Assembly (NCBI RefSeq): GCF_054482595.1
Contig: NZ_CM137008.1
Strand: one strand, 5' to 3'
Length of the DNA stretch: 64,000 bases
In this document: in pieces, positions 18,729 to 51,494 of the stretch
Layout of the letters: every line of letters starts with the position of its first letter
How positions within the stretch are numbered: position 1 is the stretch's first letter
Translations under genes and position numbers: made by a program
Notes under the pieces: model-generated
Seen by the model: only the letters and a program-made list of their open reading frames with translations
Told to the model about the DNA's origin: nothing
Databases searched by the model: none

Positions 18729-19913
18729 TTAACTGGCTTTAATTTCTCCATGTGGTACGACAACCCAATCAATATGGTTTTGCGTATAAATCTTGGTTGA
18801 CTTGGAGTCGCTGTGCGCCATTCGTGCTTGCGGATCGATACCTTGCTGATCGAAAAGATACGCTGCTAATGCTCTAATTTCGTGAAAGGTTGGTCTTTCA
18901 TCTATCGGTAGATTGTCGCATAAACCTAGCTTGTCACGTGTGGCTGAAAACGACCGGCTCAAATAGTCCGGTGCAACTTGAGTAGGGTGTGAAACCTCTT
19001 TGCTGCGTTTAACCTGCCGTTCAGGGATCCTGTGAACGACAAACGGACTGGCCACATTATCTCGGCTATCATCAATTATTCGTTTCAACTCTTCACCAAT
19101 CGGTATTGCAACGTGTGATGCCTCTTTTTTTTGCACTTTTTGCCTGTGGATGTAAAGCGTCCCATATATGCCATTTTGTGGTTGTTCGAACCAGACACAT
19201 CCACATATACCGTCTTTAGGTTCGCGAATTGAGTAACGGATTCGCGATACTTCGAGTCGTGCATGTGTAGTCTGCAATGCTAGGTCCATTGCTGTTCTTA
19301 ACCATGGTGCAGCGGCCTGCCTGATAGCTATAAAATGCTCGAGTGACAGGCGCCGTCTTTTCTTCTCATCAGTCCTACGCATTTTTTTTCTGATGGCCGG
19401 GTTATCCAGCATTAGTGATTCATCGACCGCATAAGAGAACAACTTTTTAAGGAAGCTGACCTTTCTGTTCTGCACATTTGCGGATGCGCAGGCATGATAT
19501 TTATTGATGTAGGTATTAACGTGTTCAAGTGCAATATCGCATGCTGGAACATTTACGAAAAACGCTTTTACGCGTAGAGCGTCATTTTTCCAGTCATCTA
19601 AGGTGCTCTGGGAAGGACGTTCGTCTTCGATAATCCGGGTCATTATGTGATCAACATGTTCAGCAAATGGTTTTGCTTCTCCGATAACACCGCCAGATTC
19701 TCTAATAAGATTATCTACTGATGGAGATAATTCTGGTCGCATCCTCAGGTTGTACTCTCTGGCGATTGCAATGGCTATTGCCCTATCCTTACCTATATTT
19801 TTCTTCTTTCCGGTAATAAGTGTGAATTTATAAACACCTCGATCTTTATCAAAAATCAGATAATCAGGAAGATGTCTGTATTCTTTTTTACGTGGCCTTG
19901 CCGCCATGGTCAC
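18729..19913 (-). CDS. int: Tyrosine-type site-specific integrase (lambda Int family)
   Basis: 394 aa; C-terminal catalytic motifs HEIRAL (HxxR) and KIYTQNH (Tyr nucleophile); lies near attL. Confidence 0.88.
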   Translation of the reverse strand: MTMAARPRKKEYRHLPDYLIFDKDRGVYKFTLITGKKKNIGKDRAIAIAIAREYNLRMRPELSPSVDNLIRESGGVIGEAKPFAEHVDHIMTRIIEDERPSQSTLDDWKNDALRVKAFFVNVPACDIALEHVNTYINKYHACASANVQNRKVSFLKKLFSYAVDESLMLDNPAIRKKMRRTDEKKRRRLSLEHFIAIRQAAAPWLRTAMDLALQTTHARLEVSRIRYSIREPKDGICGCVWFEQPQNGIYGTLYIHRQKVQKKEASHVAIPIGEELKRIIDDSRDNVASPFVVHRIPERQVKRSKEVSHPTQVAPDYLSRSFSATRDKLGLCDNLPIDERPTFHEIRALAAYLFDQQGIDPQARMAHSDSKSTKIYTQNHIDWVVVPHGEIKAS

Positions 19914-20119
19914 CCCTCATTTATTAACTTGCGAACAGCTTGACTAACCATTGAGTCGACTCCCCATTTTTCTGTTTCGCAGACAAAAACAGAACCGTCC
20001 ACGATGCGTCCCATGAGTAGACCGTTCTCGACCCAACGTTTTATCGTTCGGTTGTCAGGAATTGAGCCATTAGAGAATTCACGGCGTCCCCATTGGCTCG
20101 CTTTCATTAGTTTTGCCAT
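19910..20119 (-). CDS. xis: Excisionase (Xis-like DNA-binding protein)
   Basis: Small ORF overlapping int start by 4 nt; RWVENGLL...G motif resembles lambda/HK022 Xis winged helix; start set at MAKLMKAS (ORF could extend to 20164). Confidence 0.65.
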   Translation of the reverse strand: MAKLMKASQWGRREFSNGSIPDNRTIKRWVENGLLMGRIVDGSVFVCETEKWGVDSMVSQAVRKLINEG

Positions 20120-20180
20120 GGCTGTTTCTCCACTTAGCCCGCTGCACACGGGTAGTAATATCAAATTCCAGTCCTGATAA

Positions 20181-20396: not shown

Positions 20397-20598
20397 TTTT
20401 TATTCTCCGGTGCTTTCGGCATTACTGCCCAGTGGGTAATATTGACGTTTTCAAGGTCCCCGACCTGAAATGTCCACTGCCATTCTCCGGTTTCTTTTTG
20501 CCCCCAATGTGTACCAGAGAGAACGCCAGCCAATCAGCCAGCCTTCTCCATTAGCATCAAATAACAGAACACTTTCATGTCTGTTTTGTAAAAAGGAC

Positions 20599-20633
20599 GG
20601 TACCAGCCGGAAGCAAGGGTACAAGCTGGTACC
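20599..20633. other. Strong hairpin (9-bp perfect stem) in a structured noncoding region
   Basis: GGTACCAGC ... GCTGGTACC inverted repeat with 17-nt loop, within the GC-rich, stop-codon-dense region 20400..20920. Confidence 0.4.
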
Positions 20634-20920
20634 TCCAAGACTACACACAGCATAAAGTTGTGGTGCCGGGTGCCTCCCGGTGCCTGGCGAAGGTTGCACA
20701 CCAGGCGGGTGGGTATCCACAGAAGGTCGACTGTCAGCCTCAACCTTTACCCGCGTGCGCTGAGCCGCATTCACCACAACGCTAAGGATTCTCTCTGGTT
20801 GAAAATACTTAGCTGTTATGTGCCTGCTTTTAGCCACATCAGGCGAGGTGGACCTAGTTATTCCCCAACAACAAGGATTTGGTTATTATGTAACCCTCCC
20901 CAACAACGATAAGGATTTAT

Positions 20921-21010
20921 ATGGAACGATGTGTAGATAAGTATGAGGAGAGGCATGTGCCGTTAAGGCAAAAGCCTCCAGTTCCTCCAAAACCACCCAA
21001 GGAAAACTGA
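20921..21010 (+). CDS. Micro-ORF (29 aa) encoding proline/lysine-rich peptide ending ...KPPVPPKPPKEN
   Basis: ATG preceded by AAGGA RBS at 6-nt spacing; stop 8 nt before the 21018 gene; shares the PP(K/R)P(K/R)PP motif with two micro-ORFs downstream. Confidence 0.4.
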   Translation: MERCVDKYEERHVPLRQKPPVPPKPPKEN

Positions 21011-21017
21011 GACTAAT

Positions 21018-21512
21018 ATGACCAGAGACGATTATAAATTTTATATTCACTACTCTTATGTATTGGAGAAGATGAATTACACGTTGTTAACTCGTATTGA
21101 TAAATTAATAACGTTGATGTTAATCGTTCTCGGTTTTTCAGTTTTCGCCCCGTACAGTAATTTATTTATTTTCGGTTTGTTTGTTGCCGTACTTTCGGTT
21201 CTTCAGTTGGTCTATCAGTTCGGCCAGGAGGCTGGGATGTCTAAAGAACAAGCGAGGCATTACAAAAGACTGCTGATTGAGTCTGATACTCTTTCTGAAG
21301 ATCAGTTGCAAGCTAGGTATTTAAAAATCCAAGATACCGATAGTAATCCATGGAAATCACTTGAACGAGCGGCTTTCATTCGGGCCTGCATTTTTGCTGG
21401 TGTTCCAACTAAGTACGATCTAACAACCAAAGAAAAATTTATTGCTTGGTGTGCGGGAGATCTACCTCTAGAGAATGAACTAACGGATATTAATGATGAC
21501 CAACAAGCATAA
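21018..21512 (+). CDS. Small membrane protein with two predicted TM helices (moron; possible abortive-infection/superinfection-exclusion effector)
   Basis: 164-aa ORF; two hydrophobic segments (LITLMLIVLGFSVFAP and LFIFGLFVAVLSVLQLVY) then a charged soluble C-terminus; AT-rich; opposite strand to int/xis/cI. Confidence 0.6.
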   Translation: MTRDDYKFYIHYSYVLEKMNYTLLTRIDKLITLMLIVLGFSVFAPYSNLFIFGLFVAVLSVLQLVYQFGQEAGMSKEQARHYKRLLIESDTLSEDQLQARYLKIQDTDSNPWKSLERAAFIRACIFAGVPTKYDLTTKEKFIAWCAGDLPLENELTDINDDQQA

Positions 21513-21567
21513 TCCAGTTCACGGACATGTACCTCCGAAGCCGAAACCACCGAAACCGAAGAAATGA
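21493..21567 (+). CDS. Micro-ORF (24 aa) encoding MMTNKHNPVHGHVPPKPKPPKPKK
   Basis: Overlaps the 3' end of the 21018 gene in another frame; proline/lysine-rich C-terminus. Confidence 0.35.
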   Translation: MMTNKHNPVHGHVPPKPKPPKPKK

Positions 21568-21586
21568 GACATAATAGGATTGGATA

Positions 21587-21655
21587 ATGAGTCGACCAAT
21601 AGAGCCTTTTCATATTCCACCTCGTCCCAGGCCACCAGATCCAGGCCCAAAGTGA
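21587..21655 (+). CDS. Micro-ORF (22 aa) encoding MSRPIEPFHIPPRPRPPDPGPK
   Basis: ATG preceded by AGGA RBS; proline/arginine-rich; followed by a terminator. Confidence 0.35.
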   Translation: MSRPIEPFHIPPRPRPPDPGPK

Positions 21656-21680
21656 GGGTTACTGATTTTTAAAGAGCGAA

Positions 21681-21702
21681 GCGTCCGGTAGGGCGCTTTT
21701 TT
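21681..21702 (+). terminator. Rho-independent terminator ending the small + strand moron operon
   Basis: GCGUCCGGUAGGGCGC 6-bp stem (one G-U pair) with GGUA tetraloop, followed by UUUUUUG. Confidence 0.5.
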
Positions 21703-21818
21703 GTTGCTAACGAATCATCTTGGACTTCATATGCCCCAGGCGGCTACTTCGTGAGCGTCCTGCCTGTTTGTTGTTTCTCTTGGGTACATTATGTATCTCA
21801 AAGGTACATTGTCAAGCA

Positions 21819-21854: not shown

Positions 21855-22529
21855 TTAGGCTTTGATTTTGTATCTTCTTGGTTTTCCTGAGAAAATCACA
21901 GTACCAATTATAGAGCAATTACCGTTGATCTTAATGTAAGGCTCAGGCCAGTTTGGGTTTAACGCTTTGAGATAACGCTGTGTCCCATCTTCTATCAACC
22001 TTTTGAAGGTGGTTTCACCTGTATCGTGCATCAATGCAATAACGTCGTCACCGTGGCAGGCAGGTACTTCAGGATCGACAAAAATCATGTCTCCCGGGCG
22101 GTACTCATCAATCATTGAATCACCTATCACCCGCAAGATATAAGTCATTTCCCCACAGGGTACAGGGCAGGGATACGTTTCTGCTGTGCTCAAATCAACC
22201 TCAGAATATCCAACTTCTTTCCATGCTCCGGCCTGTACCCATGATATGACAGGGACTAATGTGATTTGTTTATTAGTGATTGAAACATCAGGTTTTTTTG
22301 TGATGTTCGTTGTCTGGTGTTCTTGATCGAGCCATCCGACAGGCAGGTCGAAACATTTTTCGATGTGTCGTGCCATGCTGTCACCGATATTTTTAGTAGC
22401 ACCATCTCCCATAAACCTGCTGGTTTGGGTTGGCTCGCGATCAATCATAGTGGCAAAGGAAGAATTCCCGCCAACACCATCTCTCAGTTTTCTGGCGTTA
22501 GACCGCCGGATGTCATGGATTGTTTTCAT
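21855..22529 (-). CDS. Phage cI-like repressor (HTH plus S24 LexA-type peptidase domain)
   Basis: 224 aa; C-terminal part carries the S24 pattern (VIGDSM ... KR, Ser/Lys dyad context); divergent from the cro-like gene. Confidence 0.8.
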   Translation of the reverse strand: MKTIHDIRRSNARKLRDGVGGNSSFATMIDREPTQTSRFMGDGATKNIGDSMARHIEKCFDLPVGWLDQEHQTTNITKKPDVSITNKQITLVPVISWVQAGAWKEVGYSEVDLSTAETYPCPVPCGEMTYILRVIGDSMIDEYRPGDMIFVDPEVPACHGDDVIALMHDTGETTFKRLIEDGTQRYLKALNPNWPEPYIKINGNCSIIGTVIFSGKPRRYKIKA

Positions 22530-50567: not shown

Positions 50568-51494
50568 ATGCATCGTATAGACACGAAAACCGCGCAAAAG
50601 GATAAGTTCGGCGCGGGTAAGAACGGTTTTACCCGTGGTAACCCCCAGACAGGCACGCCTGCCACCGATCTGGATGATGACTACTTTGACATGTTGCAGG
50701 AAGAGCTCTGCAGCGTGGTGGAGGCATCCGGTGCCAGCCTGGAGAAGGGGCGGCATGACCAGCTGCTTACCGCGCTTCGTGCGCTGCTGTTAAGTCGCAA
50801 AAATCCGTTTGGCGATATCAAATCGGACGGCACGGTGAAAACGGCTCTTCAAAACCTTGGTTTGGGAGATACAAGCGGATACGTGGGACGCCGGCTGAGT
50901 ACCCGGGTTTTCACGTCATCAGGTACGTACACCCCGACGCCAGGAACAAAACGGATCAGGGTCACAATAACGGGCGGCGGTGGCGGAGGGGGCGGCTGCA
51001 AGGCTATATCCAATAATGAAACGTTTTTCGGTGCTGGCGGTGGGGCCGGTGGAACAATAATTTCAATAATGACCCCGACACAGAATAGTTATCCAGTCAC
51101 TATCGGCGCAGGTGGGGCCGGTGGTGTTAGTGCGACGAACGGCACCAGGGGCGGGAATAGCGTATTCGCATCGTTAATTGCTCCTGGTGGCGCAGGCGGC
51201 GGAAAGTCAGGAGTCACAAACACAAACGGTGGTAACGGCGGCGTGCCAAGTACTGGCGGTATCAACATCATTGGTGGAAATGGAGGCGACGGTCAGTCCG
51301 GAAATATCGGCGTCAGCGGTGAAGGCGGAACATCGTACTGGGGGGGCGGTGGACGCGCAGGCGCTGGCGGTGGTGTTAGTGGTAAGGCATATGGTTCAGG
51401 TGGCGGTGGCGCATACGATGCCGGTTATAGCGGAACCAGTATGACAGGCGGGAAAGGTGCTGCTGGGATTTGTATTATCGAGGAGTTTGCATAA
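50568..51494 (+). CDS. Tail fibre protein (constant N-terminus plus glycine-rich variable C-terminus in active orientation)
   Basis: 308 aa; conserved N-terminal about 95 aa, then Gly-rich repeats ([26 protein letters not shown]); inversion crossover site lies inside at 50852..50869. Confidence 0.8.
50852..50869. repeat. Invertase crossover site (left), AAACC-TT-GGTTTGGGAGA
   Basis: hix/gix-like core AAACC-NN-GGTTT; 17 of 18 nt match the reverse complement of 52678..52695. Confidence 0.65.

Follow-up and report, generated by a model that had tools for sequence, protein, structure and literature searches.

A prophage operon encoding a SLATT-like two-transmembrane protein together with a conserved family of proline-rich micro-proteins

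An e14-like prophage of the lambdoid type in Escherichia coli, contained in a 64,000-nucleotide (nt) stretch of contig NZ_CM137008.1 (assembly GCF_054482595.1; hereafter the window), carries on its + strand a small operon that consists of a leader, a micro-open reading frame of 29 amino acids (aa) (mORF1, the upstream or U peptide), a gene for a 164-aa protein with two transmembrane (TM) segments, two further micro-ORFs of 24 and 22 aa (mORF2 and mORF3, the downstream or D peptides), and a terminator. Comparison across viral loci shows that this is a conserved accessory operon, in which one SLATT-like two-TM inner-membrane protein is encoded with between two and five proline-rich micro-proteins, paralogs of 21-51 aa under purifying selection. 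An earlier inspection of the letters of the window and its ORF list (the sequence-only reading) had drawn attention to these ORFs, and the sequence and ORF list bear out the coordinates of all of them, as well as the Shine-Dalgarno (SD) sequences that it assigned to mORF1 (AAGGA) and mORF3 (AGGA). Its interpretation of the operon stands in part: selection on the peptides, the operon architecture and a leader role for mORF1 are supported, and a likeness to antimicrobial peptides and a regulatory role for the trailing peptides are not.

Results

Conservation of the operon across viral loci

Homologs of the TM protein form 72 clusters at 90% identity, from Enterobacterales; a library of 1.8 billion proteins, clustered at 50% identity, yields 216. 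A scan of genome contigs with an alignment of the TM protein gave no confirmed locus, and viral contigs were used instead, 57 of which encode a homolog with an identity ranging from 100% down to 31%. In a six-frame scan around the TM gene, almost all loci with at least ~45% identity had proline-rich frames on both sides of the gene, and none were found on the opposite strand. By explicit ORF calling the micro-ORFs start with ATG, mostly with an AGGA SD sequence; a U peptide is present in 49 of the 57 loci and at least one D peptide in 53, always on the strand of the TM gene, and the loci that miss either are mostly contig ends or the most remote loci. The operon plan across loci is a U peptide of 24-39 aa, the TM gene, one to three D peptides of 21-43 aa (rarely fused to 71 aa), and a terminator. 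The combination of TM protein and peptide motif that the sequence-only reading had proposed to look for in related prophages thereby recurs across the 57 viral loci and in more remote relatives.

Among those remote relatives, which comprise Salmonella phage Fels-2, Yersinia phage vB_YenM_42.18 and six other contigs, including non-enteric ones (39-54% GC where measured), all eight that were sampled keep an SD-preceded, His-anchored proline-rich micro-ORF that ends a few nt before the TM start; the Fels-2 U peptide is MSDSDNFHVLPRPAPAPKPEPGQDKK. As a control, 1,495 ORFs of at least 120 aa from the window and 122 other loci were examined for an upstream U-type micro-ORF, and the 14 that have one all belong to this family, with none found before the ~1,480 unrelated ORFs. 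Because the remote relatives keep U and the unrelated ORFs lack it, the comparison identifies U plus the TM gene as the universal core of the family, with the D peptides as an expansion in the enterobacterial branch; L183 also has one. In the records of Fels-2 (L179, NC_010463 ~30250-30810) and of the Yersinia phage (L180), the TM homolog and its upstream micro-ORF are unannotated, and hypothetical ORFs are placed on the opposite strand there, in Fels-2 STM2733.1 and STM2735.

Of 5,426 complete E. coli genomes, ~134 match the query, 46 of them over at least 80% of it; in a minority of the ~134 the match is limited to 39 nt around the terminator. In INPHARED no sequenced phage has the close subfamily, and five have distant homologs.

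A single peptide family under purifying selection

All classes of the peptides have in common, in one register, the core H-Φ-P-x3-[R/K]-P-P-x-P, and because of this common register the U and D peptides are taken as paralogs. The conserved stretch is ~14 aa long; numbered from the second Pro, it has His at -8 and Arg or Lys at -2, together with Pro-Pro. The N-terminal parts specific to each class are also conserved: U has DYEE[RK]H, whereas the D motifs are MSxPI[EI]P[FN]H and GPRPDSH. The D class has a median length of 24 aa, 32% Pro and a mean net charge of +3.4, and the U class 25% Pro and a mean charge of 0 (range -4 to +7).

In a codon alignment of distinct sequences of D1, the best-conserved class, pS is 0.73 and pN 0.29, with dN/dS ~0.14. 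Diversity at codon positions 1, 2 and 3 is 0.30, 0.30 and 0.60 in D1 and 0.44, 0.35 and 0.59 in U, where synonymous sites are saturated. These values, computed from aligned codons, confirm that purifying selection acts on the peptides and not on a DNA repeat, as the sequence-only reading had argued from the use of different codons in the window's three copies; in D1 the third position is twice as diverse as the first two.

A degenerate DNA scan for H-x-P-P-x-P-R-P-P across the viral collection matched at least 120 loci. Among the matches listed, every ATG ORF of the family type, 21-27 aa long, lies within 140 nt of a TM homolog, and the others are out of frame in GC-rich DNA or inside long ORFs. 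An unrelated phage protein of 449-456 aa on four viral contigs (L074, L086, L087 and L111) ends in DNGDQGGHLPPNPRPPGR and so has the H-Φ-P-P-x-P-R-P-P core at its C terminus, where it is conserved in the four homologs. Within the window, the family-derived expression H[VIMLAS]P[PLVIT].{1,3}[RK]P.{0,1}P matches in six frames only the three micro-ORFs, compared with 0.085 matches per window in shuffled sequence; since the motif was derived post hoc, this chance check is weak evidence, and it is the comparison among loci that is decisive for the micro-ORFs. Most other polyproline matches in the window come from the antisense frames of a glycine-rich (GGxGG-type) + strand frame at ~50950-51450, which is probably a tail-fiber segment.

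The peptides have largely escaped annotation. None of the micro-ORF peptides is annotated in RefSeq, and two of ten peptides looked up among 15 billion predicted proteins are present, both without a functional name. Searches of Pfam, PADLOC and NCBIfam returned nothing for them, a PDB sequence search with mORF3 matched no chain, and a full-text literature search found no description of this module of TM protein and peptides.

Junctions and fusions between the peptides and the TM gene

Of 22 distinct junctions, 17 have the U stop codon 4-10 nt (usually 7-8) ahead of the TM ATG, and 13 read GAC UGA GGU N5 AUG, which places the U stop within the SD sequence of the TM gene (UGAGGU). The U polyproline tract ends two to seven codons ahead of that stop, and a ribosome paused on the tract, or terminating at the stop, would cover the TM initiation site. 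At the other end of the TM gene, the first D start falls in a range from 28 nt before the end of the TM stop codon to 16 nt beyond it, an ATGA overlap being among the arrangements. In the window, mORF2 and the TM gene share 20 nt, with mORF2 in the +1 frame and without a recognizable SD sequence. The position of the U stop inside the TM SD sequence, together with a first D peptide that overlaps or abuts the TM stop, therefore indicates that translation through the operon is coupled, and the same anatomy fits the leader role that had been suggested for mORF1.

In Pectobacterium (P0014, in at least three genomes), a D peptide is fused in frame to the C terminus of the TM protein, which ends in AGDLPTEKESKMAKPPVDGHIPPRPRPPAPPKAQN. 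Two D peptides are fused together in another locus (L033), and elsewhere copies of the motif stand in tandem within one peptide. A fused U peptide was sought in the N-terminally extended members of the TM family, and none was found. In an Enterobacter cloacae protein of 186 aa (P0002) and in L013, the TM stop is lost and frame 0 reads through into the mORF2 DNA (ESGSRTCSSEAETTETKE), and mORF2 itself, in another frame, is still intact.

The two-TM protein

Hydropathy analysis of the 164-aa protein gives two hydrophobic segments, residues ~30-46 and ~49-66, separated by a short uncharged loop and flanked on both outer sides by basic residues. The predicted topology has both termini inside, with a cytoplasmic C-terminal domain of ~95 aa. 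An AlphaFold2 model (mean predicted local distance difference test score, pLDDT, of 77) folds residues 3-42 and 48-88 as a long helical hairpin followed by a helical C-terminal domain, in agreement with the two TM helices named by the sequence-only reading. An AGDLP motif is conserved near the C terminus. The RefSeq entry, WP_000196298.1, is a "hypothetical protein", and the two PHROGs families matched, phrog_6315 and phrog_23697, are both of unknown function. In E. coli 50EVA (L001, 4438-4713) the annotation pipeline PGAP starts the gene at an internal Met to give 91 aa; the full 164-aa ORF is intact there and has one substitution, D106N. It seems that phrog_23697 was built from truncated calls of this kind.

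The model was compared with predicted structures by Foldseek against afdb50, in which proteins named SLATT or "SMODS and SLOG-associating 2TM effector" were matched with TM-scores of 0.75-0.83 and E values of 1e-11 to 1e-5, though many of these matches are members of the same family that were named automatically. A Fels-2 prophage protein is among the matches that UniProt names as SLATT-type. A fold search of the PDB with the model returned nothing below E = 2, and the solved structures show no resemblance to it. Because every profile threshold is missed, the protein is described here as SLATT-like, by the fold of its model and the names of its relatives, and not as a demonstrated member.

The leader and the setting of the operon

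The coordinates of the features are collected in Table 1. Two of them differ from the sequence-only reading: the hairpin and T-run that it described do close the operon, with the stem at 21678-21699 and not at 21681-21702; and of the placement between xis and cI, the cI-like gene is correct, being ymfK, whereas xis does not adjoin the operon directly, a conserved 71-aa ORF on the - strand and a region resembling the small RNA (sRNA) STnc100 intervening.

Table 1. Features of the operon and its surroundings in the window
Feature	Position	Strand	Basis
Integrase	18729-19913	-	ORF list and annotation
Excisionase (xis)	19910-20164	-	ORF list and annotation
STnc100/PasD-like sRNA region	20587-20810	-	39.9 bits, E = 1e-6
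Module-specific leader	20852..20920	+	Alignments A2 and A3, pattern search
mORF1, U peptide (upstream proline-rich micro-protein or leader peptide), MERCVDKYEERHVPLRQKPPVPPKPPKEN	20921..21010	+	ORF; AAGGA SD at 20911-20915
164-aa two-TM protein	21018..21512	+	ORF, hydropathy, AlphaFold2
mORF2, first downstream peptide, 24 aa, MMTNKHNPVHGHVPPKPKPPKPKK	21493..21567	+	ORF; overlaps 3' end of TM gene
mORF3, second downstream peptide, 22 aa, "PIEPFH" D1 class, MSRPIEPFHIPPRPRPPDPGPK	21587..21655	+	ORF; AGGA SD
Intrinsic terminator closing the operon, GAAGCGTCCGGTAGGGCGCTTT then TTTGTTGCT	21678..21708	+	9-bp stem at 21678-21699, then T-run
ymfK, LexA-family repressor (cI-like gene), followed by ymfT and ymfL	21855-22529	-	e14-type prophage annotation

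The leader is nearly invariant in DNA across loci whose proteins share only 55-70% identity (alignment A3). It has two direct repeats, CCCCAACAACAAGGA (20863-20877) and CCCCAACAACGATAAGGA (20898-15), of the general form CCCCAACAACAA..AGGA, and the mORF1 SD sequence sits inside the second. In two loci (L018 and L028) the same variant, CAACAGTCA, is found in both repeats, which is a concerted change. Binding of the repeats by a CsrA- or Hfq-type protein is a guess. RNAalifold on the leader gave weak, invariant pairs only. In the window, an ATG-TAA start-stop pair at 20887-20892 follows the AAGGA of the first repeat by 10 nt, and this pair is not in the consensus of the other loci. The sRNA match upstream of the leader scores below the Rfam gathering score of 47, and RefSeq lays a "frameshifted hypothetical protein" pseudogene over the region 20587-20810.

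In the e14 prophage of E. coli K-12 (L190, NC_000913 1201380-1201500), ymfI and ymfJ occupy the slot of the operon. The K-12 element and the window have the backbone GTGCCTGTCTTTTCACCACTTCAGGCTCGGTGG in common up to GGTGG (window 20847-20851) and diverge beyond it, and the left cargo boundary is placed after GGTGG for that reason. In the loci inspected, the operon's neighbors are integrase, excisionase, repressor, cro/cII-like and replication genes. The operon and the repressor gene are convergent and 300-500 bp apart, and the repressors of these phages are 31-100% identical. In Fels-2, the TM gene has the direction of cI and int and lies antisense to the operon of early lytic genes. By position and orientation the operon is mobile "moron" cargo of temperate phages, and because it keeps its slot near varying repressors, is replaced in K-12 e14, and has this orientation in Fels-2, it is probably expressed from the prophage.

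Discussion

The reading that we favor, with a probability of roughly 0.45, is that the operon is a membrane effector module expressed in the lysogen, in which the U peptide gates synthesis of the TM protein in cis and the released peptides are ligands or subunits of that protein. By analogy with predictions for SLATT proteins, the TM protein would be the effector, acting by perturbing the membrane or blocking DNA entry in the manner of a superinfection-exclusion or abortive-infection protein. The U peptide would act first, with ribosomes crossing its polyproline tract and terminating on the TM ribosome-binding site, and the rate of TM synthesis would be set by how readily ribosomes clear U, and would thus depend on elongation factor P (EF-P) and on the state of translation. 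Once released into the cytoplasm, the U and D peptides may act in trans as polyproline-II ligands or subunits of the C-terminal domain of the TM protein; made in a fixed ratio with it, they could hold or tune its activity. The fusions described above and the similarity of U and D cores within loci are hints, of the Rosetta-stone type, that the peptides and the TM C-terminal domain cooperate, with a core similarity of 0.596 within a locus versus 0.560 between loci (permutation p = 0.005), a difference that is small and confounded by relatedness among the loci.

Several results weigh against this reading, the small and confounded similarity and the automatic naming of the Foldseek matches among them. 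The TM protein of the window matches nothing in Pfam even at E ≤ 10 and no PADLOC model, its only NCBIfam match is TIGR04402 (E = 0.096), which is not a SLATT model, and the Pfam family SLATT_5 is reached by just one of 27 relatives, at E = 0.042. No sigma-70 promoter was recognized upstream of the operon, and RNAalifold on 13 diverged loci found no conserved pairs across the U/TM junction. When U, the TM protein and D were modeled by AlphaFold2 as one artificial chain joined by linkers, with a paired alignment of 17 rows, the peptides were left undocked with pLDDT <50, a result rated as uninformative. Expression, toxicity, exclusion and binding are, finally, predictions of this reading.

An alternative, which we consider somewhat unlikely, is that the peptides act purely in cis: they would make ribosomes pause or arrest, either in response to EF-P, proline or tRNA-Pro or through intrinsic arrests of the R-P-P type, solely to control how fast the TM gene is translated, how stable its mRNA is or how its product is targeted to the membrane, and the released peptides would be functionless. 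The placement of PPP, PPxP and RPP tracts two to seven codons before a stop that is embedded in the SD sequence of the next gene is what such a mechanism would use, the conserved stretch of ~14 aa corresponds in length to a nascent chain in the upper exit tunnel, and U is the universal element of the family. It does not easily account for the D peptides, as the terminator follows them and leaves nothing to regulate, which also speaks against the regulatory role that the sequence-only reading had suggested for trailing peptides. The class-specific N-terminal motifs (MSxPIEPFH, PIIPNH, GPRPDSH and DYEERH) are conserved beyond the proline tract, a ligand would agree better with the tandem copies of the motif and with the D peptide fused in frame to the TM protein, and no RNA switch was found at the U/TM junction.

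The operon can be compared in this respect with known leader and arrest peptides, such as SecM-secA, TnaC, SpeFL, the RAPP-type peptides ApdA and ApdP, and the proline-codon leader MgtP. It is like them in having a short upstream ORF that is conserved at the peptide level, ends at or on the ribosome-binding site of the downstream gene, and is proline-rich and prone to pausing. It differs in that paralogous copies also follow the TM gene and one lineage fuses a copy to the TM protein, and in that stalling is here a prediction and an RNA switch was not found. The strings RPP, RPPP and KPP are absent from the paper on RAPP-type arrest.

An unlikely but more novel reading is that the micro-proteins form a previously unseen, phage-encoded class of polyproline sensors or effectors that work inside the cell and on the ribosome. 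They would either arrest it as nascent chains or enter its exit tunnel as free peptides, and so couple the translation state of the host to a SLATT-like membrane effector.

Distinctly improbable is the proposal that the basic D peptides are intracellular analogs of proline-rich antimicrobial peptides (PrAMPs) made by the phage, which would bind the exit tunnel and block initiation or trap release factors, and would form the toxic arm of an abortive-infection or exclusion system controlled by U or by the TM protein. PrAMPs such as oncocin, apidaecin, Bac7 and pyrrhocoricin resemble the D class in length, proline content, cationic charge and PxPRPP-type cores: the D peptides are 21-26 aa long with the composition given above, mORF3 holds PRPRPP, which is also the core of oncocin, and many D peptides end in PRPPxPxx and a stop, loosely like the PRPPHPRL of apidaecin. 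PrAMPs are made by animals, secreted, and imported through SbmA, and their pharmacophores are Tyr-Leu-Pro-Arg-Pro in oncocin and the C-terminal Pro-Arg-Leu in apidaecin. The residues that carry this activity, Tyr-Leu before PRP and the C-terminal Arg-Leu, are not conserved in the present family, in which the fifth core position, a K in HVPPKPRPP, can be K, R, H, F or L, and the C termini vary freely. The U peptides are neutral or acidic, the peptides would be intracellular and have no signal peptide, mORF3 has no sequence match among PDB chains, and constitutive production in a lysogen would be self-toxic. The resemblance to PrAMPs noted in the sequence-only reading is accordingly one of composition only.

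It is very improbable that the operon is a locus of the type I toxin-antitoxin kind, in which the divergent STnc100-like sRNA would pair with the mORF1 ribosome-binding site and repress the operon. The sRNA match itself scores 39.9 bits (Table 1), and in the window the 5' part of the sRNA, GAAUCCUUAGCGUUGUGG, has its complement in CCAACAACGAUAAGGAUUU, a stretch that covers the mORF1 SD sequence; the complementarity is missing from most other loci (z ~0), however, the sRNA adjoins only one of eight other loci searched, and the toxin would far exceed type I toxins in size. It is scarcely credible that the micro-ORFs are something other than independent genes, whether frameshifted remnants of a longer protein, frames that ribosomes enter by a programmed shift out of the TM gene, or chance frames within a CCN-rich repeat. 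In favor of this, mORF2 does overlap the TM gene in another frame with no SD sequence, and fused and read-through forms do exist (P0014, P0002 and L013). Against it, the frame of the peptide relative to the TM gene differs among loci (0, 1 or 2) and the gap ranges from -28 to +16 nt, so that neither programmed frameshifting nor decay of a longer gene can serve as a general explanation. Additional peptides found 50-170 nt downstream have an ATG and AGGA of their own, the peptides are conserved while synonymous sites are saturated, and neither the opposite strand nor the DNA before unrelated genes has ORFs of this kind.

With respect to known membrane effectors, the TM protein has most in common with the SLATT-domain two-TM effectors of CBASS-type, retron and DRT systems (Burroughs et al. 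2015; Pfam PF18160 and relatives), with which it has in common the two-TM hairpin joined to a cytoplasmic part that is helical, a length of ~150-180 aa and a setting in prophages or defense, in addition to relatives that carry the SLATT name in UniProt. SLATT proteins are predicted to be pore-forming suicide effectors in retron and DRT systems; an example is a retron of a prophage whose presence renders sbcB essential. The operon differs from those systems in that no nucleotide cyclase, SLOG, SAVED or reverse transcriptase partner is found among its neighbors, the partners being proline-rich micro-ORFs, and in that the protein falls below every SLATT profile threshold. The prophage exclusion and abortive-infection proteins lambda RexAB, P22 SieA, HK97 gp15 and T4 Imm are likewise small inner-membrane proteins with a moron position in the immunity region and an orientation for expression in the lysogen, but no relation to the TM protein in sequence or fold was detected, and to our knowledge none of them is accompanied by polyproline micro-proteins. 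The Rz/Rz1 spanin pair offers another parallel, a proline-rich small gene that overlaps a membrane-protein gene in a different frame; the present operon has no lipobox or signal peptide and lies outside the lysis cassette. A spanin match in PHROGs, with E = 0.43, was rejected as noise. We regard the operon as a module in which a putative membrane effector of SLATT type has partners not described before; known SLATT systems have other partners, and known leader peptides and PrAMPs differ as set out above.

The analysis defines a micro-protein family of 21-51 aa that gene callers have missed and whose reality rests on unusually clean comparative evidence, and it corrects the annotation of a TM gene that is missing or truncated in Fels-2, the Yersinia phage and some RefSeq genomes. 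Orphan stand-alone SLATT-like proteins of prophages gain a conserved partner, and their regulation becomes directly testable in tractable strains, among them Salmonella LT2 (for Fels-2) and lysogens of E. coli. A polyproline tract placed on the ribosome-binding site of the next gene is a simple and accessible design for a readout of EF-P or translation status. Should the ribosome-engaging possibility be true, the operon would be a translation-sensing abortive-infection or exclusion system without a described counterpart and would contain the first PrAMP analog from a bacterial virus; and if the peptides bind either the membrane protein or ribosomes, phages would have in them a regulatory or defense component of a new type.

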